Shown here piece by piece: positions 16,408 through 29,120 of a stretch of DNA of 64,000 bases. Positions within the stretch are counted from its first letter, which is position 1, and the number at the start of each line of letters is the position of its first letter. The DNA is from an uncultured Haloferula sp. (GTDB taxonomy: Bacteria; Verrucomicrobiota; Verrucomicrobiia; Verrucomicrobiales; Akkermansiaceae): contig CBFGTS010000006.1 in the NCBI GenBank assembly GCA_965652295.1, positions 96,001 through 160,000 on the forward strand, written 5' to 3'. Made by a program: the position numbers and the translations under genes. The notes under the pieces were generated by a model, which saw only the letters and a program-made list of their open reading frames with translations, made no database searches and was not told where the DNA came from.

Positions 16408-17868
16408 ATGAAACGAATTACTTCCGATCCGTGGTCCGCGCAAAGCGATCTTGCGAAGGGGCACTTTCACGGGCCTCATCTTCCCCCGGCGAAGGACGAA
16501 GCGTCCCGCGAGTTCGTCGGCCGTCTCGATCCCGATTTCCAGAACCTGGCTGCCACCGGGCACGCCACCTGCCAGCACGGAGGCGGATGTACCTGCGGAG
16601 GCGAAGTCGTTCTGGAGTCCGAGGAGGACGCGGTCGCCCACGTGATCGAGGAGTCGGCCATCCGCGCGATCTTCCCGAACGAACTGAAGCGGCGCCAATT
16701 CATCGAGCGCGTTGGCCGGGCGGCCGCCGTTTCGCTGGTGGGAGGCATTTTCCCGCTGGGCCGGATGACCGCCTGGGCGCAGGAACCGGTCAAGGGGATC
16801 GAGAAGAAGGACCTGTCGATCGGTTTCATCCCGATCACCTGCGCCACGCCGATCATCATGGCGGAGCCGATGGGCTTTTATCAAAAGCACGGCCTCAACG
16901 CCACGGTCCGCAAGGCCTCCGGCTGGGCGATGGTCCGCGACTGGGCGATCAATGGCGACGTGGACGCCGCCCACATGCTCAGCCCGATGCCGCTCTCGAT
17001 CACGCTCGGAGCGGGCTCAAAGCAGATGAACTTTTTCATGCCCGCGGTGGAAAATATCAACGGCCAGGCGATCACCCTGGCGAACAAGCACAAGAACGTG
17101 AAGACGGCGGCCGACATGAAGGGCTTCCGCTTCTGCGTGCCGTTCGACTACTCGATGCACAACTATCTGCTACGCTACTTCCTCGCCGAAGGTGGAGTGG
17201 ACCCGGACAAGGACGTCCAGATCCGCGTGGTGCCGCCGCCGGAAATGGTCGCCAACCTCAGCGCCGGAAACGTGGACGGCTACCTCGCGCCCGACCCATT
17301 CAACCAGCGAGCGGTGTATGAGAAGGTCGGCTTCCTTTTCAAGCTGACGAAGGACATCTGGCCGGGCCACCCGTGTTGCGCGTTCGCCATCTCCGAGGAC
17401 TTCACCAAGAGCTACCCGAACAAGGCCTTGTTCAAGTCGATCGTCGATGCGACCTACTTCTCGTCCGACCCCGCCAACCGCAAGGAGATCGCCAAGGCCA
17501 TCTCGCCGGCCAACTACCTGAACCAGCCGCAGATCGTTCTCGAACAGGTGCTCACCGGGACCTACGCCGACGGGCTCGGCGGGATCCAGAAGGCACCCGA
17601 CCGGATCGACTTCGACCCGATGCCCTGGCACTCGATGGCGATGTGGATCCTCTCGCAGATGGTCCGCTGGGGCCAGGTCAAGCCGGACGTGGACTACGCC
17701 GCGGTCGCGAAGAAGGTCTATCTCGAGGCGGAGTGCGGGGACATGATCGAGGACCTCGGCCACAAGAAGAAGATGATCTCGCTCGGATCGTTCGAGATCA
17801 TGGGCAAGAAATTCGACCCGTCGGATCCCGGAGGTTACGCCAAGAGCTTCGCGATCACCCGAGTCTGA
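16408..17868 (+). CDS. CmpA/NrtA-family ABC substrate-binding protein, probably cyanate (CynA-like)
   Basis: IGFIPITCATPIIMA, ENINGQAITL, PFDYSMHNYLLRY, VPPPEMVANL, HPCC. Tat-like KRRQFI. In an operon with cyanase. Confidence 0.92.
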   Translation: MKRITSDPWSAQSDLAKGHFHGPHLPPAKDEASREFVGRLDPDFQNLAATGHATCQHGGGCTCGGEVVLESEEDAVAHVIEESAIRAIFPNELKRRQFIERVGRAAAVSLVGGIFPLGRMTAWAQEPVKGIEKKDLSIGFIPITCATPIIMAEPMGFYQKHGLNATVRKASGWAMVRDWAINGDVDAAHMLSPMPLSITLGAGSKQMNFFMPAVENINGQAITLANKHKNVKTAADMKGFRFCVPFDYSMHNYLLRYFLAEGGVDPDKDVQIRVVPPPEMVANLSAGNVDGYLAPDPFNQRAVYEKVGFLFKLTKDIWPGHPCCAFAISEDFTKSYPNKALFKSIVDATYFSSDPANRKEIAKAISPANYLNQPQIVLEQVLTGTYADGLGGIQKAPDRIDFDPMPWHSMAMWILSQMVRWGQVKPDVDYAAVAKKVYLEAECGDMIEDLGHKKKMISLGSFEIMGKKFDPSDPGGYAKSFAITRV

Positions 17869-17919
17869 TGAACCGGCGCGTCGGCAGGCACCGCCGGCGC
17901 GCCCCTCCTTTCCGTTCCG

Positions 17920-18810
17920 ATGAACCGAAGTCTCAAGAACGCCTTCGCGCCCTATTTGCTCACGTTGCTGATCTTCGGCATACTGTTGGCATTCTGGCAC
18001 GGGGCGACGCGCCAGCCGCCGTTCGATCCCTCCGGCCACTCGGAGGAGGATCTGATGCTGATGGAATTCAACGGCGACATTCTGCGCGACGAGGCGGGAA
18101 ACTACATCGCCAATCCGGACAAGGTGTCCGGGGTTCCCGGCCCGGGTCCGGTCCTTGACAAGGCACGCGAGGAACTCGGCGAGGCCTTCGTCAAAAAGGG
18201 CACCAACGATCATGGGATCGCCTGGCTGATTCTCTACACCATCCGTCGCTTCATGATCGGCTTTCTCGCCGCATCGGTGATCGCGGTGGGATTCGGGGTC
18301 CTCATCGGCCTGTCGAAGCCGCTGCTCACGGCGCTCAATCCCTTCATCCAGACCCTCAAGCCGATCTCACCGCTGGCGTGGATGCCGCTGCTGCTCTACA
18401 CGGTGAAGGATCCTTTCTGGACCGCGATCCTGGTCGTGTTCATGGCCTCGTTATGGCCGACCATGGCCAACACCGCGCTCGGGGTCTCATCGATCAAGTC
18501 CGACTACCTGCGGGTGGCGAGCATGGTCGAGCTGGGCGTCTGGCGGAAGCTGTTCGGCGTGATCCTTCCGGGTGCCGCGCCGGCGATTTTCGCCGGGCTG
18601 AGGATCTCCTTCGGCAGCGCTTTGGTCGCGGTGGTGCCGGCCGAGATGCTGCTCGGCGAACTCGGCGTCGGTTACCTCAGCTGGATCGAGTGGAACAACC
18701 TCGACATCTCCGGAGTCATCTTCGCCATCGTCATTGTCGGCATCGTCGGCTTCACCCTCGACACTCTCTTCGCCCGTTTCGCCAACCGTTTCAACTACGC
18801 CGAATCCTGA
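17920..18810 (+). CDS. Nitrate/cyanate ABC permease (NrtB/CynB-like)
   Basis: PFIQTLKPISPLAWMP, VVPAEML, GVGYLSWIEWN. Confidence 0.92.
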   Translation: MNRSLKNAFAPYLLTLLIFGILLAFWHGATRQPPFDPSGHSEEDLMLMEFNGDILRDEAGNYIANPDKVSGVPGPGPVLDKAREELGEAFVKKGTNDHGIAWLILYTIRRFMIGFLAASVIAVGFGVLIGLSKPLLTALNPFIQTLKPISPLAWMPLLLYTVKDPFWTAILVVFMASLWPTMANTALGVSSIKSDYLRVASMVELGVWRKLFGVILPGAAPAIFAGLRISFGSALVAVVPAEMLLGELGVGYLSWIEWNNLDISGVIFAIVIVGIVGFTLDTLFARFANRFNYAES

Positions 18811-18816
18811 TCACGC

Positions 18817-19671
18817 ATGAGTTATCTCCACGTTGACCACCTGACCAAACGCTTCTCCTCGATCGAACCCGGAGCGAGACCCGGCGACACCTACACGGTG
18901 TTCTCGAAACTCAACTTCTCGATCGAAAAAGGCGAGTTCGTCTCGATGCTCGGCCACTCCGGCTGTGGAAAGAGCACCCTGCTCAACATCATGGCGGGCT
19001 TCGACTCGGCCACCGAGGGCGGCGTGATCCTCGAAGGCAGGGAGGTCACCTCCCCCGGGCTGGACCGGATGGTGGTCTTCCAGAGCTTCGCCCTGCTGCC
19101 GTGGAAGACGGCTGGCGACAACATCCGTCTCGCCGTCCGGCAAGCGAACCCGAAATGGTCGAAGCATCAGATCGAGGAAACCACCGCGAAATATCTCGAG
19201 TTGATGAACCTCACCGCCGCCGCGAACAAACGTCCGGCCCTGCTGTCAGGCGGCATGCGCCAGCGGGTCGGGCTCGCCCGCGCCTTTTCGGTGAACCCGA
19301 AGGTTCTGCTGCTCGACGAACCCTTCGCCCAGATCGACGCGCTGACCCGCGGGTCCATTCAGGATGAATTGATCCGCATGTGGACCGCCACCGGCAGCAC
19401 CGTGTTCATGGTCACCCACGATGTGGACGAGGCGATCCTGCTGTCCGACCGGATCGCGCTGATGTCGAACGGGCCCGACGCGGAGCTTGCGGAAGTCATT
19501 GAGGTGGACATCCCGCGTCCGCGGACGCGCGAGATGCTCATCGACCATCCGCGCTACCCGGAGATCCGCGCGCACATTCTGCGTTTCCTCGTGAAAGGAG
19601 CGCACGGCCGCGCCAAGCCGACGGACGAGGTCTCGACCGCCGGAACTCCCGAGGCCCGCAAGAGTGCCTGA
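18817..19671 (+). CDS. Nitrate/cyanate ABC ATP-binding protein (NrtD/CynD-like)
   Basis: [31 protein letters not shown]. Confidence 0.95.
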   Translation: MSYLHVDHLTKRFSSIEPGARPGDTYTVFSKLNFSIEKGEFVSMLGHSGCGKSTLLNIMAGFDSATEGGVILEGREVTSPGLDRMVVFQSFALLPWKTAGDNIRLAVRQANPKWSKHQIEETTAKYLELMNLTAAANKRPALLSGGMRQRVGLARAFSVNPKVLLLDEPFAQIDALTRGSIQDELIRMWTATGSTVFMVTHDVDEAILLSDRIALMSNGPDAELAEVIEVDIPRPRTREMLIDHPRYPEIRAHILRFLVKGAHGRAKPTDEVSTAGTPEARKSA

Positions 19672-20757
19672 ATGAGAGCAAACCCGCCACTCGAGGACAC
19701 CTGGCGCGCGCGCCGACGCCCGGTGGTCGAAATCGGCTATGTGCCGATGACCGACTGCGCACCGATCGTGGCCGCCGCCGAGCTGGGATTGTTCGAGCGG
19801 CACGGCATCGACGTCGTCCTACGACGTGAGCCGGGCTGGGCGACCGTGCGCGAAAAAGTCGCCCATGGGGAACTCCACGCCGCGCAGGCACCGGCCAGCA
19901 TGGTCTTCGAACTCAGTTGCGGTTGGGGAACGATCCGCTCGAGCTGTCTGACCGGATTCGTGACCGCTCACAATGGCAACGCGATCACCCTTTCCAACGA
20001 GCTGAGGGAGCTGGGCGTGAGCGATGCCGTCTCCCTCGGCGAACTCGTGAGGGAATGGAAGGGTCGTCGGAGATTCCGCTTCGCCGGCGTGCTGCGCTTT
20101 TCCTCCCAGTACTACCTGATGCGCCGCTGGCTCCAGAGCGGCGGGATCGATCCGGACGAAGATGTGGAGATGGTGATCGTGCCGCCGCCCCAAGTGCATG
20201 CCTGCCTGAAGGCGGGCCACCTCGACGGCTACTGCGTGGCCGAGCCGTGGAGTTCGATCGGGCTTCTCCAAGGTGTCGGCTGGTGTGCCACGCTGACGTC
20301 CGACTTCGATCCGATGCACGTCGAGAAAGTCTTCATGGTCCGTCAGGATTTCCATGATGGCCGCGAAGACTGCCACCTCGCGATCCTGAGCGCGTTGCGC
20401 CAGTCCGCCGAATGGTGCGATGAGTCGGGAAACCGCCGGGAGCTGGCGGAAATGCTCGCCCGACCGGAATACCTCGACCTACCCGAGGAAGCCATTGCGA
20501 CCGCGCTCGTCGGGCCTTTCGAGATGGGCTACGGGCGCAGGACCAATGCCTCGCGGGCCATCGTTTTCCACGATCAGGAGGCCAATCGTCCGACGCTGGA
20601 GAAGGCCCGCTGGGCGCTCCGCGAGATCGAACACCACGGCCTGGTGCCTCCGGCTGCGGCACGCCTGTCCGACGAGCGGATTGCCCGCCATTACCGAACC
20701 GACGTCTATGACTCGATCCCGGTGGTGGGGCCGCGCTGTCAGCCACAAAACTCGTGA
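19672..20757 (+). CDS. Signal-less CmpA/NrtA-fold protein (NasS-like sensor)
   Basis: IGYVPMTDCAPIV, NGNAITLS, LMRRWLQSGGIDPD, VPPPQ, DGYCVAEPW. No N-terminal export signal. Confidence 0.85.
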   Translation: MRANPPLEDTWRARRRPVVEIGYVPMTDCAPIVAAAELGLFERHGIDVVLRREPGWATVREKVAHGELHAAQAPASMVFELSCGWGTIRSSCLTGFVTAHNGNAITLSNELRELGVSDAVSLGELVREWKGRRRFRFAGVLRFSSQYYLMRRWLQSGGIDPDEDVEMVIVPPPQVHACLKAGHLDGYCVAEPWSSIGLLQGVGWCATLTSDFDPMHVEKVFMVRQDFHDGREDCHLAILSALRQSAEWCDESGNRRELAEMLARPEYLDLPEEAIATALVGPFEMGYGRRTNASRAIVFHDQEANRPTLEKARWALREIEHHGLVPPAAARLSDERIARHYRTDVYDSIPVVGPRCQPQNS

Positions 20758-20784
20758 GCGGATGCTTTTCAACCCCACAGACAT

Positions 20785-21231
20785 ATGATGACCAAAATCG
20801 AAATGACCGAAGCCATCCTGGCCGCCAAGTTCGCAAAAGGATGCTCCTGGGCGGAAATCGCCTCGTCCGTCGACCTCTCTGAGATCTTCGTGAGCTCGGC
20901 ATGCCTCGGCCAGAACAGCCTTACGCCCGATGAGGCCGCGAAGCTATGCGCCTTCCTCGACCTTCCCGACGAGGTGGCGGCCGTGCTCGCCCTCTGCCCT
21001 CTGAAAGGCGTCGGTGGTCCCGACCAGCAACGCGACCCACTCATCTATCGATTTTACGAGATCACCTACGTTTACGGGCCCGCGATCAAGGAGATCATCC
21101 ACGAAAAGTTCGGCGACGGGATCATGAGCGCGATCGACTTCACCCTCGAGGTGGACAAGCAGGAGGATCCGAAGGGAGACCGCGTGGTGGTCACCATGAA
21201 TGGCAAGTTCTTGCCCTACAAGAAGTGGTGA
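20785..21231 (+). CDS. cynS: Cyanate hydratase (cyanase)
   Basis: DPLIYRFYEI, IHEKFGDGIMSAIDF, GDRVVVTMNGKFLPY. Confidence 0.97.
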   Translation: MMTKIEMTEAILAAKFAKGCSWAEIASSVDLSEIFVSSACLGQNSLTPDEAAKLCAFLDLPDEVAAVLALCPLKGVGGPDQQRDPLIYRFYEITYVYGPAIKEIIHEKFGDGIMSAIDFTLEVDKQEDPKGDRVVVTMNGKFLPYKKW

Positions 21232-21364: not shown

Positions 21365-24037
21365 TCAACCACCCCCCGGCTGCACGGCGGCGGACCGGTT
21401 GCGGTGGAGCGCGGGGCGGACAACACCGACGAGGTCCTCGGGATCGGCCTGGAAGGCGGGACCGAGGAAGGCGCGGAGCCGGTGGAGTTCGTGCAGCGGG
21501 TCGCGGACGAGAGTGGGATAGTCGATTTCCAAAAGATCGATGCGCGGGTTCCGCCGGAGTTGCCCGAGCAGGCGGGTGAGGTGCGCCTGCTGGAGATCAA
21601 TCAACTTTTCGACAGGAGCGGCCGGGCTTTCGCCGCGGCGCTCGAGCATCTTGGCCTGGGAGGCGACGATTTCCTCGATCGGCCGGCGCATGAAGACGAT
21701 GCGGTAGCGGTGGCGGGGCGGGAGGCTCGGCAGCAGGGCGGAAACGACCTTGATCGTCTTGCCTTCCGCCTGCTCGATGATTTCCGGCCGTTGGCGGAGC
21801 GAGCGGATCTCGTCCCACTCCCAGTAGCCCTCGGGATTGTCCTCATCGGCCGCGCGTTTGCCGTCGTGCATGACCGGCATGCCCGCGGCGCGGAGGATCT
21901 GCATCGTGAGCGATGTGCCGGAGCGCGGGAGTCCTGAAACAAGCGTGAACTCAAGACTGCGGGCGGAGGTCTCATCGGGCGGCGCGCTTTTGACGCGGAG
22001 CCGGGCCCGCTCGGCGGATGCCTTGCGGATCCGGTCGCGTTGCTTGTCGAACTCCGAGTTTTCCATGGCCCGTCGCAAACGGGCTTGGGCGAGCGCGTCC
22101 TCGGCACCCGGGCGACCGAGCGTGCGGCGCACGCGGGTGAGGTGCCGCGCCGCGGGTCGGTGCGAAGGGGCGAGCTGCAGGCAGTTGTTGAGAGCGGCTT
22201 CAGCCGCTTCAAGCTCGCCGCACCGCGCCAGAGCCACACCGAGCAGGAAATGGGCACGCGGCGCACCATACTGGAGCCCCACGGCGTCGAGCGCCGTCTC
22301 GGCCGCGTCGCGCGGTTTTCCGCCGTGGAGCTGGCAGCGCGCGAGGGCGAGATGGGCGCGGGCGTCGCCGGGATCGAGCGCCAGCATACGACGGGCGATT
22401 TCCTCGGCATCGGTCCAGCGGCGCAGCGCCAGATAAGCCTCGGCCAGGCCTCGCAGGAGTTGGGGATTTTCCGGTTCGGTTTCCCGCACGATCGCCAACT
22501 GCTCGAGCGCCTCGGCGTGCCGGCCGCGCTGGGCTGCGACGCTCGCCAGCAACAGCCGCGCCGGCGTGGTAGGACCGAGATTTTCAAGGCAGGCGCGCAG
22601 GGTCTCTTCGGCCTCGTCGGCCAAACCCAGTTTGAGTTGCGTCCGCGCAAGCAATTGCCCGTAGTCCGCCCGTCCGGGCGCGGCGGCGAGGCACTCCTCC
22701 AGGAGTTCGAGGGCCCGCTCGAATTTGCCGCCGTATAGACAGGCGCGGGCGAGGTTCCAACGGTTCTCCCGCTCGGTCGCGGCCCCAGCTTCGGGGCCGA
22801 GCGAGGCCTGATCGATGTATCCGAGGGCGACGAACTGCTCGAGCAGCGCGTCCCCGGCCTCCTGCGGCAGGCGCGGATGACGGGGTTCGTCGTCCGGCGT
22901 CTCCCACGTCGGACAGGTTTCCACCGGCTGCGGCTCGAGGAAAGCTTCCAGCAGAACCCGCCCCTCCATGTCGTCGCCGACCGGCAGCCCGAAGTGGTGG
23001 AGGACGGTGGGTGCGATGTCGAGCAGGCGCGCGCCGTGGATCAGGCGGTCCTGCGCGAGATCCGGCCCGCGGGCGGCGATCATACCCTGCGCGCGGTGCC
23101 AGACGGTGATGCCGGCCGGCACCCGCGGCGTGAAGCGCGGCCGGAGGTGGTCGCTGTGAAAACCGTGATCGGAAACCAGCACCACCGTCGCATCCGGCCC
23201 CGCCAGATGCATGAGCCGCTGGAGCATCATGTCGTGCGCGCGATAGGAGCCGTTCACGACGTCGCGGTACATCTCGAAATCCGCCTCCGGCACCCCCTCC
23301 ATGCGCGGCGGGTGGAAGGGCATGAAGGTGTGGGAAATCTCATCGATCGCCCGGAAATAGACCGCCATGAAATCCCAGTCCGGATCCTTTTCCATCAGCC
23401 ACGTCGCCGCCGACTGCACCGAGTAGGCCTCGGCGAGCTTGTCCGCGAGGAAATGCAGGCGGCGGTCCTTCGACTGATCCACCTCCGCGGCGCGCGGGAC
23501 GAAAGCGCGGAGCACCTCGGCGTCGATCTCGCGCGGGCTCACCCGCAGCGCGTCCAACTCCCGGCCAAGGTCCTCCGGCCAATAGGTTCCGGGAGGAGGA
23601 GGAGGCCATTGCTCCGGGCCGGCTTCCGGCGGCACCGGCCCCAGGTGAGGGAAAAGATTCGAAACCATCCCACCGTTCAGTCCGCGCTCGCCCTGGGTGG
23701 CGAACCAACCCACCACGTGGCTTCGCAGCCCGTGGTCGCCGAGCATTTCCCAGATCGTACGAGACCGGCGGGTGGCGGCGGATACCGGGACAACGCGCCC
23801 GCTGGCGGGATCCACCTCGGTGAAACCGAGGACGCCGTGGTGATACGCCATCTTGCCGGTGGCGATCGAGGTCCAGAGCATCGGCGACAACTGCGGCTCA
23901 AGCGTCGCGAGATTTCCGGAAACTCCACCCTCCACCAACTGCTGCACGCCGGGCAGCATGCCGGCGTCCAGCAAGGGATGGATGACCTTCCAATCGGCCG
24001 AATCCCAGCCGATCAGGAGTAAACGTTGGCGGGCCAT
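21365..24037 (-). CDS. Alkaline-phosphatase-superfamily / TPR / sulfotransferase fusion protein
   Basis: N-terminal LLIGWDSADW, LSPMLWTSIATG, VSDHGF; central TPR helices; C-terminal PAPS-binding loop SGLPRSGTS and FMRRPIEEIVASQ. Confidence 0.88.
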   Translation of the reverse strand: MARQRLLLIGWDSADWKVIHPLLDAGMLPGVQQLVEGGVSGNLATLEPQLSPMLWTSIATGKMAYHHGVLGFTEVDPASGRVVPVSAATRRSRTIWEMLGDHGLRSHVVGWFATQGERGLNGGMVSNLFPHLGPVPPEAGPEQWPPPPPGTYWPEDLGRELDALRVSPREIDAEVLRAFVPRAAEVDQSKDRRLHFLADKLAEAYSVQSAATWLMEKDPDWDFMAVYFRAIDEISHTFMPFHPPRMEGVPEADFEMYRDVVNGSYRAHDMMLQRLMHLAGPDATVVLVSDHGFHSDHLRPRFTPRVPAGITVWHRAQGMIAARGPDLAQDRLIHGARLLDIAPTVLHHFGLPVGDDMEGRVLLEAFLEPQPVETCPTWETPDDEPRHPRLPQEAGDALLEQFVALGYIDQASLGPEAGAATERENRWNLARACLYGGKFERALELLEECLAAAPGRADYGQLLARTQLKLGLADEAEETLRACLENLGPTTPARLLLASVAAQRGRHAEALEQLAIVRETEPENPQLLRGLAEAYLALRRWTDAEEIARRMLALDPGDARAHLALARCQLHGGKPRDAAETALDAVGLQYGAPRAHFLLGVALARCGELEAAEAALNNCLQLAPSHRPAARHLTRVRRTLGRPGAEDALAQARLRRAMENSEFDKQRDRIRKASAERARLRVKSAPPDETSARSLEFTLVSGLPRSGTSLTMQILRAAGMPVMHDGKRAADEDNPEGYWEWDEIRSLRQRPEIIEQAEGKTIKVVSALLPSLPPRHRYRIVFMRRPIEEIVASQAKMLERRGESPAAPVEKLIDLQQAHLTRLLGQLRRNPRIDLLEIDYPTLVRDPLHELHRLRAFLGPAFQADPEDLVGVVRPALHRNRSAAVQPGGG

Positions 24038-24046
24038 GGCGGCGCG

Positions 24047-24658
24047 TCAGGCCGCTTTGCGTTGGCGCCGGGTGATCAGACCGCCCGCGCCCAACGCGAG
24101 CAGGGCGAGGGCCGAAGGCTCCGGCACCGCATCGATGGCGGTCTTGCCGGCGGAGATACTGAGGGCGCTGCCGTCGTCGTTCACCGCGAGGGCCACGAGG
24201 TAGCCGCCCCCTGCCCCATCCAGATAGAACTGCCCCACCGCCTCATACACGTCATCGTCACCGTCGAAGGAGATGTTGGCGTAGTTGAATGTGGTGTCGA
24301 GGGTGGCCCCATACGTCGGCACGCTATCGATGCGATACTGGCCGTAACCCCAGGTCTCGAGGGAAGCGAGATCGCTCTCTCCGTCCGTGAAGTAGTTCAA
24401 GCCGACATTGCTGAACGCGGCGCGCGCATCAACGGCATCGACCACTCCATAGTATTTCTCGTCAGTAAAGATATTCTGGTAAAAGAGCCCCACCGAGATC
24501 CCGGCCGGCGTGGCGGGAGTGGAACTGGAATTCTGGGCACCTGGACCATAGAAAGTCACCAGAATCGCCGCGTCTGCTTGGCCAGCCAAACAACCGGCGC
24601 CAAGGCTTGCAGTGAGGTAGGAGGTGAGCTTCGACGGCTTGGGGTGTCGGGTTTTCAT
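24047..24658 (-). CDS. PEP-CTERM surface protein, Tyr/Asp-rich
   Basis: Leader ending QADA; C-terminal VPEPSALALLALGAGGLITRRQRK. Confidence 0.93.
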   Translation of the reverse strand: MKTRHPKPSKLTSYLTASLGAGCLAGQADAAILVTFYGPGAQNSSSTPATPAGISVGLFYQNIFTDEKYYGVVDAVDARAAFSNVGLNYFTDGESDLASLETWGYGQYRIDSVPTYGATLDTTFNYANISFDGDDDVYEAVGQFYLDGAGGGYLVALAVNDDGSALSISAGKTAIDAVPEPSALALLALGAGGLITRRQRKAA

Positions 24659-25051: not shown

Positions 25052-26251
25052 ATGTCGACCTCTCATCCCACGACCGATCTTTCCATCCAGTTTCTCACCT
25101 CGCTTGATTCCGAACGTTTCAAACGCCTCACCGCCGCGCCCCCTGAGGGCGGGCAGATCGCCACCATCCTTCTTCCCATGGAGGTGAAAGGCGCGGAAAC
25201 GCGGAAGAACCGGATCGCATTCAAAAACGCGCTCGCCGAGCTGCGCTCCCGGCTCAAAGGCAACGGCGGAGCGAGGCTTGGGCGGGTGCTGGAGGAACTC
25301 GAATGCCTGGACGCCCCCACACATGAGTTCTGGCAGCACCAGCACGAGGGCCTCGCGCTGGTGATCCGCGAAGATGGCACGACGGATGCATACGGGCTGC
25401 CCTTTGCACCGGAGTCCCGCGTCCATCTCGGAGAAGCACCATACTTGACCCCGCTGGCACGCCTGATCGGGGGCTTCGAGGCCCACGTGCTGGTGCTCGA
25501 TCTCGACCACGTCCGTCTTTTCTACGCCACCCGCTGGCGGGTACAGGAACTCAAACTGGAGCACACACCGCTGAGCCTTGATGAGGCCATGGCCACCGAC
25601 GATCCGGAGAAGAGCCTCCAGTTCCGCAGCGTTTCCTCCTCGAACCTGCCCGGCGAAGGAGGCGGAACCGCCGCTTTTCACGGCCATGGCATCACGGGGG
25701 ACGAAACCCGTCGCAAGCGCGCCAAGCGCTTCTTCGAACAACTGGACAACGGCGTGCGCGCCACCGCCGGCGACAATGTCCCGCTCGTGCTCTGCGGCCC
25801 CGACGATGAAATCGGCCTCTACCGCGAGGTGAACCACCACCCAAAGCTCAGCCACGAAGCGATCCGCTTCAACGCCAGCAACCTCGACCGCGACGAGCTT
25901 CACCGCCGCATGCGCGAGTGGGTCATCGAGCGCGACGATGCGCTCGTCGAGGAAAGCCTCGGCAACCTGCAGGAGGGCCTCGCCAAGGCCGAGGCGGTGG
26001 ATGAAATCGGGGAGATCGTGCGTTCCGCGAAGAACGGCCGGATCGCCGTGCTTTTCGTCGAGACCGGAGCCCGGCTCTACGGCATCGGGGATGAAACCGG
26101 AGCCATCGTTCATGACTCCCCGCAGCCCGGAGATGAAGAACTGCTCGGCCGCGCCGCCCACCAGGTCGCCAGCCAGGGAGGACGCGTTCATTTCCTCGAT
26201 CCAGGAAGGCTCGCCAACGGCAGCAAGGCAGCGGCAATCCTGCGCTACTGA
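25052..26251 (+). CDS. Bacterial archaeo-eukaryotic release factor-like (baeRF) protein
   Basis: NRIAFKN, FWQHQHEGLA, PYLTPL, SLQF...FHGHG, PLVLCG, GRIAVLFV, C-terminal AAAILRY. Confidence 0.75.
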   Translation: MSTSHPTTDLSIQFLTSLDSERFKRLTAAPPEGGQIATILLPMEVKGAETRKNRIAFKNALAELRSRLKGNGGARLGRVLEELECLDAPTHEFWQHQHEGLALVIREDGTTDAYGLPFAPESRVHLGEAPYLTPLARLIGGFEAHVLVLDLDHVRLFYATRWRVQELKLEHTPLSLDEAMATDDPEKSLQFRSVSSSNLPGEGGGTAAFHGHGITGDETRRKRAKRFFEQLDNGVRATAGDNVPLVLCGPDDEIGLYREVNHHPKLSHEAIRFNASNLDRDELHRRMREWVIERDDALVEESLGNLQEGLAKAEAVDEIGEIVRSAKNGRIAVLFVETGARLYGIGDETGAIVHDSPQPGDEELLGRAAHQVASQGGRVHFLDPGRLANGSKAAAILRY

Positions 26252-26300: not shown

Positions 26301-27404
26301 GTGCGCGCCCCCCTCCTTTTCGTCGTCCTTGCTGGCTGCCTGCTGGCGGAGGCGGCCGATCGCTTTTCCCCTGGCGAGATCTGGCCGGATGATCAGGGCG
26401 TTCACATCAACGCCCACGGCGGCGGCGTGCTTTTCCATGAAGGAACCTACTATTGGTTCGGCGAGCACAAGGTGTCCGGACCGCGGGGAAACTCGGCCCA
26501 GGTCGGCGTGAGCTGCTACTCTTCCACCGACCTCTACCACTGGAAGAACGAGGGCATCGCCCTGGCCGTGGAGGAAAAGAGGAGTAGCGAGATCACCCGC
26601 GGCTCCATCATTGAGCGGCCGAAAGTCGTCTACAACCGGAAGACCCGGAAGTTCGTGATGTGGTTTCACCTCGAACATCGCGGCGAAAGCTACGGCACCG
26701 CCCGCTGCGCGGTGGCCACTTCCGACAAGGTCACCGGTCCCTACGATTTCATCGAAAGCCACCGCCCGAACCGCGGCGAGTGGCCGCAGAACTACGACCG
26801 CAGGGAAACCAAGGACCAGTGGGTGGACTACCTCAAGCGCGACCGCCGGCGCGGCCAGATGGCGCGCGACATGACCGTGTTCGTCGACGACGACGAAAAG
26901 GCTTACCTCATTTCCTCCGCCGAGGAGAACTACACGCTCAACATCTCTCTGCTCACCGACGACTATCTCGATTTCACCGGCACCTTCTGGCGCCTCTTCC
27001 CCGGCGGGCACAACGAAGCGCCCGCCCTCTGCAAGCACGACGGCAAATACTGGCTGCTCGCCTCCGGCTGCACCGGCTGGGACCCGAACGAAGCCCGCTC
27101 GTACGTCGCCGACTCGATCGGAGGCCCATGGAAAACCCTCGGCAACCCCTGCACCGGGCCGAACGGCACGGGCGGCATGGGCCCCGAGAAAACCTTCGGC
27201 GGTCAGAGCACTTTCATCCTCCCCATCCACGGCAAGCCCGGCCAGTTCATCGCCATGTTCGACGTCTGGCGGCCGAAAGACCCCATCGACGGCCGCTACC
27301 TCTGGCTGCCCATGAACTTCGAAAACGGCCGGATGACCATCGTCTGCCCGAAAAGCTGGCAGCTGAGCGACCTTGATGTGCTCTCGGAAGTCGCCACGCC
27401 GTGA
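26301..27404 (+). CDS. Glycoside hydrolase family 43 protein, secreted
   Basis: Signal peptide, INAHGGG, YYWFGE, IERPKV, RDMTVFVDDD, EAPA, SGCTGW, GQST. Confidence 0.9.
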   Translation: MRAPLLFVVLAGCLLAEAADRFSPGEIWPDDQGVHINAHGGGVLFHEGTYYWFGEHKVSGPRGNSAQVGVSCYSSTDLYHWKNEGIALAVEEKRSSEITRGSIIERPKVVYNRKTRKFVMWFHLEHRGESYGTARCAVATSDKVTGPYDFIESHRPNRGEWPQNYDRRETKDQWVDYLKRDRRRGQMARDMTVFVDDDEKAYLISSAEENYTLNISLLTDDYLDFTGTFWRLFPGGHNEAPALCKHDGKYWLLASGCTGWDPNEARSYVADSIGGPWKTLGNPCTGPNGTGGMGPEKTFGGQSTFILPIHGKPGQFIAMFDVWRPKDPIDGRYLWLPMNFENGRMTIVCPKSWQLSDLDVLSEVATP

Positions 27405-27418
27405 GCGGCCTCCATCGC

Positions 27419-27595
27419 CCGGTAGGGACCGGCGGCCCGCCGGTCCGATTCTCCCTCGCCGCAGGCGGAACTCTTCGGCGGACCGGGCCGGTCCGCCCTA
27501 CCGTCTGCCTTCATCATCCGGTAGGGACCGGCGGCCCGCCGGTCCGATTCTCCCCGCCGCAGGTCCTTCGGCGGACCGGGCCGGTCCGCCCTACC
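27419..27595. repeat. Tandem pair of GTAG-type REP doublets (BIME/REPIN-like)
   Basis: Two units (27419-27502 and 27518-27595), each GTAGGGACCGGCGGCCCGCCGGTCC...GGCGGACCGGGCCGGTCCGCCCTAC. Located between convergent genes. Confidence 0.9.
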
Positions 27596-27638
27596 TTTGA
27601 TCCAATTCACCCACGGTGCCGTGACGACTCCGTTGCGG

Positions 27639-29120
27639 TCACGACAGCACCTCGACCGTCACATCCATGCGCCTGCCATCAACGGTGAGCGCATAACGTT
27701 TCTCCGGACCTCGAGGCGCAGGCTCTGCTGCGGCAACGGCAGCGGGCTTCACGGGGACGGGCGGGGTTTTCTCCGACCGAAGCGCTTCAAGCTGCGCCGG
27801 GAACATCGCGTGGATGACGCAATGCTCGTCGTCGGACGGAAGGCCCTTCGCCTCCAGCTCGCGACGGAGATCCTCCATGTGCTTCGGTTTGGCATCGGGC
27901 GCGTCGGCGGGCCGGCACGTGATCGGCTGCTTGCCCGCATGCTTCGCTGCGAGCTCCTGCAGCTCCGCGCTGACAGGTGCCGGCGTGCGACCGTAGTAGC
28001 CGAGCGCGATGTCCGCCGCCTGCGGCGAAAGCTGTTTCCAGCGGCCGAACTTGACGTTGAGAAACGCCTGCATGCCGACGATCTGCGAGGTCGGCGTGAC
28101 GAGAGGAATCCAGCCGAGCGCCTCGCGGACCACCGGGATTTCCCGGAACACCTCGTCGAAGCGGTCCTCCATCTTCTGCTCCTTGAGCTGGGTGCGGAAG
28201 TTCGAGAGCATGCCGCCCGGCACCTGATATTCGAGCGTGTCGCTGTCCACGATCTCGTTCTGGTGCGAGGTGAACTCGCTCAACTCGGCGTAGGCTTCCT
28301 CCAAAGGCGCACGCATCGCCTTCAGGGCTTCCCGTTGCGCGGGCGAAACCTCCGGACAGCGCGGATGACCTTCGAGCAACGCCAGCATCCGGGCCGCGTC
28401 CGGCTGGCCGGTGCCATTGGCAAAGGGAGCGATCGAGACATCGATGGCATCCACCCCCGCGTCGATCGCCGCAAGATACGTGGCAGCTCCCAGACCCGCG
28501 GTCTCATGAGTGTGGATCCAGACAGGAATGTTGAGCTTCGCTTTCAGCCCGCCGATGATCTCGGCCGCCCGCTGCGGCGGAATGAGCCCGGCCATGTCCT
28601 TGAGCACGATCGCATCGCAGCCCATCTTTTCGAGTTCGTGCCCGAGTCCGATGAAATCCGCCACGGTGTGGACCGGACTGGTGGTGTAGCAGATCGTCCC
28701 GTGGGCCTGCGCGCCGGCGTTCTTCGCCGCATCGATCGCACACCGCATGTTCCGCGGATCATTGAGCGCATCGAAGATCCGGAAGATGTCCATCCCGTGG
28801 CGGGCCGCGGTGGCGATGAAGGCTGCCACCACGTCGTCCGGGAAATGCGCGTACTGCACGATGTTCTGGCCACGCAGCAGCATCATGTGGGGCGTCTTCG
28901 GGCACGCCTGCTTCAACGCATCGAGCCGGTCGAAGGGAAACTCGCCGAGGAAACGAAGGCCGGCGTCGATCGTCGCGCCGCCCCAGGTTTCGAGGGCTCC
29001 GAAGCCCCAGCCGTCGAGCGCCTCGCAGACCGACAGCATTTGCGCGGTGCGCATCCGGGTGGCGGCGAGGCTCTGGTGGCCGTCACGCAGGACGGTGTTG
29101 TTGAAAACGACCGGTTTCAT
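27639..29120 (-). CDS. Pyruvate/oxaloacetate carboxyltransferase (OadA/PycB-like), no biotinyl domain
   Basis: LRDGHQSLAATRM, ETWGGAT, RIFDALND, LKDMAG, HTH, QVPGGMLSN, PLVTPTSQIVG. No AMKM motif. Confidence 0.9.
   Translation of the reverse strand: MKPVVFNNTVLRDGHQSLAATRMRTAQMLSVCEALDGWGFGALETWGGATIDAGLRFLGEFPFDRLDALKQACPKTPHMMLLRGQNIVQYAHFPDDVVAAFIATAARHGMDIFRIFDALNDPRNMRCAIDAAKNAGAQAHGTICYTTSPVHTVADFIGLGHELEKMGCDAIVLKDMAGLIPPQRAAEIIGGLKAKLNIPVWIHTHETAGLGAATYLAAIDAGVDAIDVSIAPFANGTGQPDAARMLALLEGHPRCPEVSPAQREALKAMRAPLEEAYAELSEFTSHQNEIVDSDTLEYQVPGGMLSNFRTQLKEQKMEDRFDEVFREIPVVREALGWIPLVTPTSQIVGMQAFLNVKFGRWKQLSPQAADIALGYYGRTPAPVSAELQELAAKHAGKQPITCRPADAPDAKPKHMEDLRRELEAKGLPSDDEHCVIHAMFPAQLEALRSEKTPPVPVKPAAVAAAEPAPRGPEKRYALTVDGRRMDVTVEVLS

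Follow-up and report, generated by a model that had tools for sequence, protein, structure and literature searches.

Protein sulfation in bacteria has so far been documented essentially for one enzyme, the Xanthomonas sulfotransferase RaxST, at least as the field is described in the relevant part of one review (PMC9372746), and this enzyme sulfates, in the cytoplasm, a protein that is encoded by a neighbouring gene (PMC4646787 and PMC9372746, in the portions of each that deal with it). The same review has it that, in substrates of tyrosylprotein sulfotransferases (TPSTs), Asp is mostly found just before the target Tyr, and that genes for bacterial TPSTs often adjoin genes for exported proteins, the latter point being cited there as unpublished observations (PMC9372746). 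The locus considered here belongs to an uncultured Haloferula sp. (assembly GCA_965652295.1, contig CBFGTS010000006.1, positions 96,001 to 160,000, this whole stretch of 64,000 nucleotides being referred to below as the window), and comprises two adjacent genes on the reverse strand: one for a 203-residue protein, here called the partner, that joins an atypical leader and a beta-rich domain of a large, unnamed family to a PEP-CTERM tail (24047..24658), and, after an intergenic gap of 9 nt (24038..24046), one for an 890-residue fusion, without export signal, of an alkaline-phosphatase-superfamily (AlkP) domain, tetratricopeptide repeats (TPRs) and a sulfotransferase domain (21365..24037). Enzymes encoded beside the gene for a surface protein, which they modify before export, are also familiar from HMW1C, from Aah/TibC and, for the serine-rich repeat proteins, from GtfA/B, while in peptides that are made on ribosomes and modified after translation (RiPPs) recognition of a leader or follower means that short terminal segments direct the enzyme.

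No description of this two-gene module was found in the main texts of the open-access literature searched (supplementary gene tables could list the genes), and the excerpts considered of PMC8776678, PMC12188702 and PMC10957091 contain nothing relevant to it; the module is real, widespread and apparently undescribed. The reading favoured here, to which we would give slightly less than an even chance, is of a conserved module in which a cytoplasmic AlkP-TPR scaffold would dock the precursor of the partner, the sulfotransferase would modify that precursor before export, and the AlkP site would serve the sulfation step. It builds upon the linkage of the genes, catalytic motifs that are intact, a partner's tail that co-varies with the enzyme, and the loss of AlkP site and sulfotransferase together.

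As regards linkage, there are three AlkP-TPR genes in this genome, each with a member of the partner family upstream, and the family has four members there in total; adjacency of enzyme and partner in this genome is far above chance. A second intact fusion, on contig C7 (L038:5512-8857; 42% identity), has a partner with the tail motif and with a leader lacking the LxxY pattern described below, while the third copy, on contig C1 (L039:5395-8670), consists of a partner gene, a gene with a weak resemblance to GNAT (see below) and an AlkP-TPR gene whose catalytic residues have gone, without any sulfotransferase. The first-pass annotation of this DNA, whose placing of a PEP-CTERM gene 9 nt ahead of a signal-less AlkP/TPR/sulfotransferase fusion is confirmed by the open reading frames (ORFs) and domains, had proposed beforehand, as a check, that homologues should keep an exported neighbour, and this is largely what is seen. 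A single draw of 301 genomes from the same class was searched with profiles for AlkP, for the sulfotransferase and for the partner, each on its own, and here a partner lies within 3.5 kb at 36 of 54 AlkP-TPR loci, directly upstream at 31 of them, and 27 of 44 loci remain linked once the five genomes of the draw that fed the partner profile are omitted. Over all the loci fetched, where each enzyme was counted once and only if flanked on either side by at least 900 nt, a gene for the partner domain lies within 3 kb of 67 out of 92. Among 8,000 proteins scored, at least 4,436 are relatives of the enzyme at E 1e-60 or better, its nearest named homologues being from Haloferula and Luteolibacter, and the source labels of module members include Verrucomicrobiota, Bacteroidia and Terriglobia; a single-protein scan of GTDB contigs gave three loci only, and there was no plasmid match at E 1e-20.

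What the partners keep best, judged by sequence, is their C-terminal tail (LxxLAxGAxG) and not their acidic tyrosines. In the 203-residue protein this tail occupies aa 178-203 (24050..24127, reverse strand) and comprises VPEPS, the family motif LALLALGAGGL and a basic end, forming a candidate docking helix; the wider consensus is L-G-x-L-A-x-G-A-x-G-L-x-x-W-R, with the central Gly present in all 135 sequences scored (using a profile anchored on that Gly). A tail profile trained on metagenome partners only gave a median of 21.2 bits for 27 enzyme-adjacent genome partners as against 5.75 for 20 proteins having the same domain but encoded away from the enzyme, and a score of at least 15 bits was reached by 20 of the former and one of the latter; among the non-adjacent copies, signal peptides of ordinary appearance and ordinary PEP-CTERM tails predominate. 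Run over 68 PEP-CTERM proteins of this genome, the profile places three partners at ranks 2-4, while ORFs with the tail motif lie near 49 of the 92 enzymes versus one of 60 random windows.

By the features of its tail, the 203-residue protein is at the same time a true PEP-CTERM protein (TIGR02595, 27.7 bits with a cut-off of 16; PF07589, 24.8 with a cut-off of 20.7), the PEP motif, hydrophobic stretch and basic cluster all being present, and its cleavage and surface display are predicted; an exosortase is encoded in this genome, on contig C15 (PF09721, E 7.8e-49). It could not be placed in a named PEP-CTERM family, since NF033554 (PepA) gave 28.6 bits against a cut-off of 80 and nine others listed were also far below theirs. 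The exosortase anchoring suggested in the first pass would hold for this protein, but is not general: 78 of 141 top family members have no PEP motif. In those 78 the tail motif nevertheless persists, and in 53 of them it is only weakly hydrophobic there (<1.2 over 17 residues). Moreover, in seven loci (L113, L126, L139, L152, L153, L157 and L216) the tail exists as a separate protein of 63-80 aa, and at six of these seven there are partners alongside that bear a leader and have no tail, a type IX secretion system (T9SS) tag being found in L126, L139 and L153; one micro-protein locus with such a leader-bearing, tail-less partner is labelled Bacteroidia. Since the motif thus outlives the sorting function and is detachable, it likely has a second binding partner, for which the linked cytoplasmic enzyme would be the obvious candidate.

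For the enzyme itself, domain searches gave matches to PF01663 at 6-294 (E 2e-25), to TPRs at about 428-632 and to PF13469 at 779-862 (E 2e-9), and the structure model is a confident one (pLDDT 93, pTM 0.86). In this model strand 1 of the AlkP fold begins at residue 5, with the metal ligand D12 next, and because the chain opens directly with that strand there is no signal peptide or other export signal; together with the presence of both motifs for binding 3'-phosphoadenosine 5'-phosphosulfate (PAPS), this agrees with the earlier proposal of a cytoplasmic, PAPS-binding enzyme. The AlkP domain (aa 3-370; 22928..24031, reverse strand) has a complete two-metal site of the nucleotide pyrophosphatase/phosphodiesterase (NPP) type, formed by D12, S51 (the nucleophile), D232, H236, D290, H291 and H314, each of them present in 141 or 142 of the 142 homologues aligned. 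Fold searches with the whole model, in which the AlkP part was matched and the sulfotransferase part was not covered, found as best matches ENPP7, Xac NPP and ENPP1 (Z 26-27; rmsd ~2.7 over ~273 residues), with sulfatases below them (Z up to ~24). In phosphonoacetate hydrolase the counterpart of S51 in the alignment is the Thr mutated in structure 3t02, which we take to be the nucleophile. By fold, two-metal ligands and Ser/Thr nucleophile the domain thus belongs to the NPP branch of the superfamily, and it is a predicted phosphodiesterase. Formylglycine sulfatases have a C/S-x-P-x-R motif at the nucleophile, and that identity was rejected, the context of S51 being LSPMLW.

Behind the AlkP domain lie, all on the reverse strand, a helix containing LEQFVALGYI (aa 392-408; 22814..22864), the residues L405-G406-Y407 of which are invariant in enzymes with an intact AlkP site and lost in those where it is dead, the TPR array (aa 417-640; 22118..22789), and a minimal sulfotransferase domain (aa 696-880; 21398..21952). 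It may be mentioned that FVALGY in this helix resembles LLALGA in the partner's tail, and the tail might occupy or displace the helix in the enzyme, although with so short a motif the resemblance may be coincidence. An identity of the TPR enzyme with PrsT (TIGR02917) was also tried and rejected (72 bits, cut-off 312, and no lipoprotein signal). The sulfotransferase domain has a 5'-phosphosulfate-binding (5'-PSB) motif (PRSGTS, within SGLPRSGTS at 701-709), a 3'-phosphate-binding (3'-PB) motif (R785, S793) and a family motif DxDNPxGYxE, and P-R-x-G-T-S, R785 and S793 are invariant in 45 sequences. Compared with the PDB, its profile matched 56 sequences at E up to 1, nearly all of them sulfotransferases; small-molecule sulfotransferases (SULTs) came top (E 5e-7), TPST1/2 aligned to profile positions 3-24 only, that is, over the 20-residue 5'-PSB motif, and a fragment, 8w5z, aligned to positions 86-172 (E 7.5e-4), with SULTs again higher. 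Since SULTs come first and TPST1/2 match over the 5'-PSB alone, the acceptor is not readable from sequence. No relationship was found between the AlkP profile and the sulfotransferase profile. An adenosine 5'-phosphosulfate (APS) kinase is encoded in this genome, and one lies directly downstream of the module in L088 and L093.

The two catalytic parts appear nonetheless to be coupled. Of 50 metagenome loci, 25 have the sulfotransferase as part of the fusion, 12 have it as a gene of its own and 13 show none within view, which had suggested that it might be optional, but this idea was dropped after co-occurrence had been assessed at the level of genomes: 30 of 33 genomes of the draw with an AlkP-TPR gene also have the sulfotransferase family, 30 of 34 the reverse, and in all three AlkP-TPR genomes without the family the AlkP nucleophile or metal ligands have been lost. 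Across all loci there are eight full-length dead AlkP copies, and within 1.5 kb of these no sulfotransferase is encoded; this count omits L042 (cut by the contig start), L223 and L260:3678 (frameshift pieces), L037:421 (an unrelated TPR protein) and L221 and L275 (one locus of a distant AlkP family, four rows). In contrast, the AlkP site is intact in all 100 ORFs with an adjacent sulfotransferase. Because the site is lost together with the sulfotransferase, AlkP catalysis appears to serve sulfation, which accords with the first-pass guess that this domain might remove the inhibitory product 3'-phosphoadenosine 5'-phosphate (PAP) or edit the mark. NPP-type sites usually prefer diesters over monoesters such as PAP. 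The ALGY helix is lost in all eight dead copies, and on a quick FastTree tree with long branches the dead state requires at least three changes. A partner still adjoins six of the eight, and four of them are adjoined by a recurrent gene of about 290 aa, related across loci and weakly GNAT-like (Pfam E 0.027, under the cut-off; an Atlas lead), which forms a fusion with the intact enzyme at L097 and with a remnant of AlkP at L251; since dead copies still stand beside the partner or the GNAT-like gene, the scaffold would seem to keep a partner-linked role without catalysis.

At its other end the partner has a leader (aa 1-30; 24569..24658, reverse strand) with a basic N-region, L11-x-x-Y14, a weakly hydrophobic Gly/Ala stretch and a predicted signal-peptidase site A28-D29-A30, the site being assigned from an AxA pattern. 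Its hydrophobicity is 1.55 versus a median of 2.1 in the PEP-CTERM proteins of this genome (AxA and basic N-region being judged by pattern), and the single-chain model has low confidence at 10-27 and gives no confident leader structure. Of 120 close homologues 117 keep Y14, as do 123 of the 127 top family members that were scored, and Phe never replaces it in either set. Among partners of intact enzymes 60 of 97 have the LxxY leader, and among those scored beside dead copies and L251 one of seven has it, so that the first-pass suggestion of a shared leader motif stands for a majority of partners, though not for all (see below).

On the favoured reading, the weakly hydrophobic leader would delay export, which would likely follow a slow, post-translational Sec route, and the AlkP-TPR scaffold would meanwhile take hold of the precursor at its leader and at its tail helix (the latter alternatively through the micro-protein in trans). 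Sulfate would then be moved from PAPS to a hydroxyl of the partner (Ser, Thr or Tyr) before export, a protein being the likely acceptor, and the NPP-type site would either clear or process nucleotides of the PAP/PAPS type by hydrolysis or trim an intermediate. Once the protein has been exported, signal peptidase would remove its leader, and anchoring would fall to exosortase in this organism and to some other tag elsewhere. A bolder extension, which we regard as possible but distinctly less probable, is that the protein-sorting tail has acquired a second use as a docking handle that is portable, acting in cis or in the form of a micro-protein. The platform that it serves would be the cytoplasmic AlkP-TPR part, and this would decorate, before export, surface proteins of a very large family with modular chemistry, mostly sulfation with a live site and, elsewhere, a GNAT-like step on a dead scaffold.

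Several observations weigh against the docking and sulfation of the partner as just set out. The sulfotransferase is no nearer to tyrosylprotein sulfotransferases than to small-molecule SULTs, and a gene for the partner domain is lacking within 3 kb of 25 of the 92 enzymes. Six genomes of a single genus with small genomes (1.7-2.1 Mb; L083, L236, L237, L272-L274) have a divergent but intact fusion and no partner at E 1e-22, nor any at E 0.01 in the four checked, and in that genus the enzyme may serve some other client. On the tail profile, 7 of the 27 adjacent partners fall under 15 bits, and the top score within this genome belongs to an unrelated PEP-CTERM protein. The leader Tyr is absent in 27 of 71 partners of intact enzymes that have an adjacent sulfotransferase, and because it is absent from so many partners, Y14 would seem to serve recognition in many lineages rather than being an obligatory sulfation site. 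In the mature domain no hydroxyl residue is conserved across the family, conserved Tyr positions swapping with Phe or Trp. Finally, related genomes are not independent, so that the p-values for the tail, Tyr, linkage and leader comparisons overstate the significance.

Some of these same points lend themselves to a different explanation, in which the tail or micro-protein does no more than hold the enzyme at the inner membrane or activate it there, and sulfate goes onto a lipid, glycan or small molecule, which the exported protein binds or displays. Persistence of the enzyme without a partner in one genus would fit this, as would glycosyltransferase neighbours at L080, L240 and L236, the small-molecule SULTs at the top of the PDB sequence matches, the want of a conserved acceptor residue, and the fact that the micro-protein offers nothing obvious for modification. 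We nevertheless consider it a rather unlikely account, though the strongest competitor: no genes for glycan or lipid synthesis are recurrent among the 90 scanned of 133 candidate neighbours, a mere anchor does not explain why the unusual leader is retained in cis on tail-less partners, and TPR arrays are, as a matter of general knowledge, usually polypeptide binders.

It is also conceivable, if improbable, that the AlkP domain acts as a transferase, which would begin by placing a phospho-group (e.g. glycerol- or sugar-phosphate from a nucleotide donor) on the partner, the resulting adduct then being decorated by the sulfotransferase or, elsewhere, by the GNAT-like protein or a GT2 enzyme. The NPP-type diester site is complete, there are transferases within the AlkP superfamily, such as EptA and PptA, and there are 40 intact copies that have no sulfotransferase within 1.5 kb. 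However, those of the 40 that come from the 301-genome draw sit in genomes that carry a sulfotransferase elsewhere, and many of the metagenome ones are cut by contig ends; furthermore, the AlkP site dies when the sulfotransferase is lost while the GNAT-like gene stays beside four of the eight dead copies, implying that a GNAT step needs no AlkP product.

Less probable again is what the first-pass annotation had emphasised, namely that a RaxST/TPST-like enzyme sulfates Tyr residues of the mature domain that lie among acidic residues. Its description of the 203-residue protein was accurate, in that the 13 Tyr, the acidic peptides quoted and the leader quoted are all present, and at 6.4% the Tyr share is the highest among the PEP-CTERM-like ORFs listed for this genome; the 5'-PSB motif is of the Arg type, as in TPSTs. 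What fails is the use of Tyr richness and acidic contexts as a target signal. There is no Asp-Tyr pair in the mature protein, and 120 close homologues have 21 where 74 would be expected, whereas TPST substrates mostly have Asp before the Tyr (PMC9372746, in the part cited above). Tyr content is 4.5% in partners and 4.1% in non-adjacent controls, which may be taken as equal, and acidic residues are below the controls (8.3% versus 11.1%). Only Y138, of the three contexts noted, keeps acidic surroundings, and this within its own clade (mean 2.5 Asp/Glu within 5 residues), but it is replaced by another aromatic residue in 30 of 118 homologues, and similarity to TPST1 and TPST2 is confined to the 20-residue motif. 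With Tyr not enriched and Asp-Tyr depleted, acidic-tyrosine sulfation in the RaxST/TPST style is unsupported. As for an accidental neighbourhood, for which the roughly 68 PEP-CTERM genes of this genome would provide ample opportunity, this is refuted by the linkage counts and is scarcely credible, given that just four of those genes are partner-family members, that three of these stand upstream of the three AlkP-TPR genes, and that the linkage is repeated in other genomes and in metagenomes.

The part of the partner between leader and tail, comprising the mature domain and a following helix (aa 31-177; 24128..24568, reverse strand), is modelled with pLDDT 92-98 per block and has its strands at 32-160. 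It is a beta-rich domain with the signature G-F-x-F...YGW...AYE, for which no match to a solved structure (best Z 4.1) and no Foldseek hit were found, and a search of Pfam and NCBIfam with 25 partners (set A3) returned sorting tags only and no domain name. At E 1e-10 the partner profile takes in 15,365 clusters at 50% identity, which include copies of the domain outside the module. Five large secreted proteins (P0241, P0242, P0250, P0277 and P0340) have 4-5 copies of the partner domain together with weak matches to metzincin proteases, two of them having T9SS tags. In the enzyme-adjacent partners (the L025-L081 set) the mature part has 7.2% Asn as against 4.8-4.9% in non-adjacent proteins, with lower Asp/Glu, in a comparison of 13 residue classes; N-x-S/T sequons in enzyme-adjacent partners are not enriched (56, with 55 expected).

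Around the gene pair in the window, ABC-transporter-like genes and a cyanase gene (cynS) on the forward strand (16408-21231) converge on the fusion, and at the other loci no tie of such genes to the module was seen. On the other side lies a gene for a protein of the bacterial archaeo-eukaryotic release factor family (25052-26251), transcribed away from the module, and at 27296-27688 a short repeated unit in the translations suggests small intergenic DNA repeats. At the locus there is no sigma-70 promoter-like site, terminator-like sites are no more frequent than by chance, and no RNA holder is listed. Elsewhere, genes for a PqqD-family and a radical SAM protein follow a split sulfotransferase at two related loci from which the partner gene is absent (L130:7804-9565 and L133:6403-8098), a cytochrome P450 gene adjoins module genes at L072:4894-6201, and an ORF that looks P450-like by eye adjoins a stand-alone sulfotransferase at L229:6584-7633. 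At L236 a GT9-like gene and one for a type III secretion chaperone resembling SycD/LcrH lie near the fusion. At L246:3991-4755 a partner gene that has both leader and tail is split over two frames in a genome where AlkP-TPR was not found, possibly a case of decay after loss of the enzyme. No aspartyl/asparaginyl hydroxylase was found among the 90 scanned out of 133 candidate neighbours.

If the enzyme does modify its partner, the module would provide a route to sulfated bacterial surface proteins and a second job for a sorting tail, as well as a function for an unstudied cytoplasmic family of NPP type, and it could possibly be turned into a tool for tag-directed protein sulfation; if, further, the tail acts as a docking handle, protein sulfation would be common in environmental bacteria. 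The adjacent gene pair and the natural dead variants keep the model simple to test experimentally.

Set beside described systems, the module resembles PEP-CTERM/exosortase sorting (TIGR02595, PF07589, PF09721) in its PEP motif, hydrophobic stretch and basic end and in having an exosortase in the genome, but differs in that its tail carries an additional family motif that survives loss of the PEP motif and is sometimes a separate gene, and in that its leader is atypical. The TPR protein linked to PEP-CTERM is also different, being a cytoplasmic enzyme here, whereas the relevant passages of the founding paper link only the lipoprotein PrsT (PMC1569441). With the NPPs (Xac NPP, ENPP1/3/4/6/7), PafA and phosphonoacetate hydrolase (PF01663), the enzyme shares its fold (Z 25-27), two-metal ligands and a hydroxyl nucleophile, but it differs in having Ser rather than Thr, in being only 16-22% identical, in lacking an export signal and in its fusion to TPRs and a sulfotransferase. 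The dedicated adhesin-modifying enzymes and those of RiPPs are unrelated to it, and add sugars or act on short peptides; we know of no case among them of a sorting tail being re-used as a recognition element. With RaxST and RaxX there is the likeness of a cytoplasmic PAPS-dependent sulfotransferase encoded beside the gene of an exported protein, and of an Arg-type 5'-PSB. The module's sulfotransferase differs, however, in that it is a minimal domain, about 190 aa long and linked to AlkP-TPR, that resembles TPST1/2 over the motif only, while its partner is a folded, Sec-type protein of 200 aa, where RaxX is a 60-aa peptide secreted by a type I system, and neither an Asp-Tyr signal nor, next door, a type I exporter is seen. 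Similarity to TPSTs beyond the PAPS motif was thus lacking in the sequences compared (RaxST not being among them), yet in its manner of working the module would, on the present analysis, be most like RaxST/RaxX together with the dedicated adhesin-modifying enzymes.

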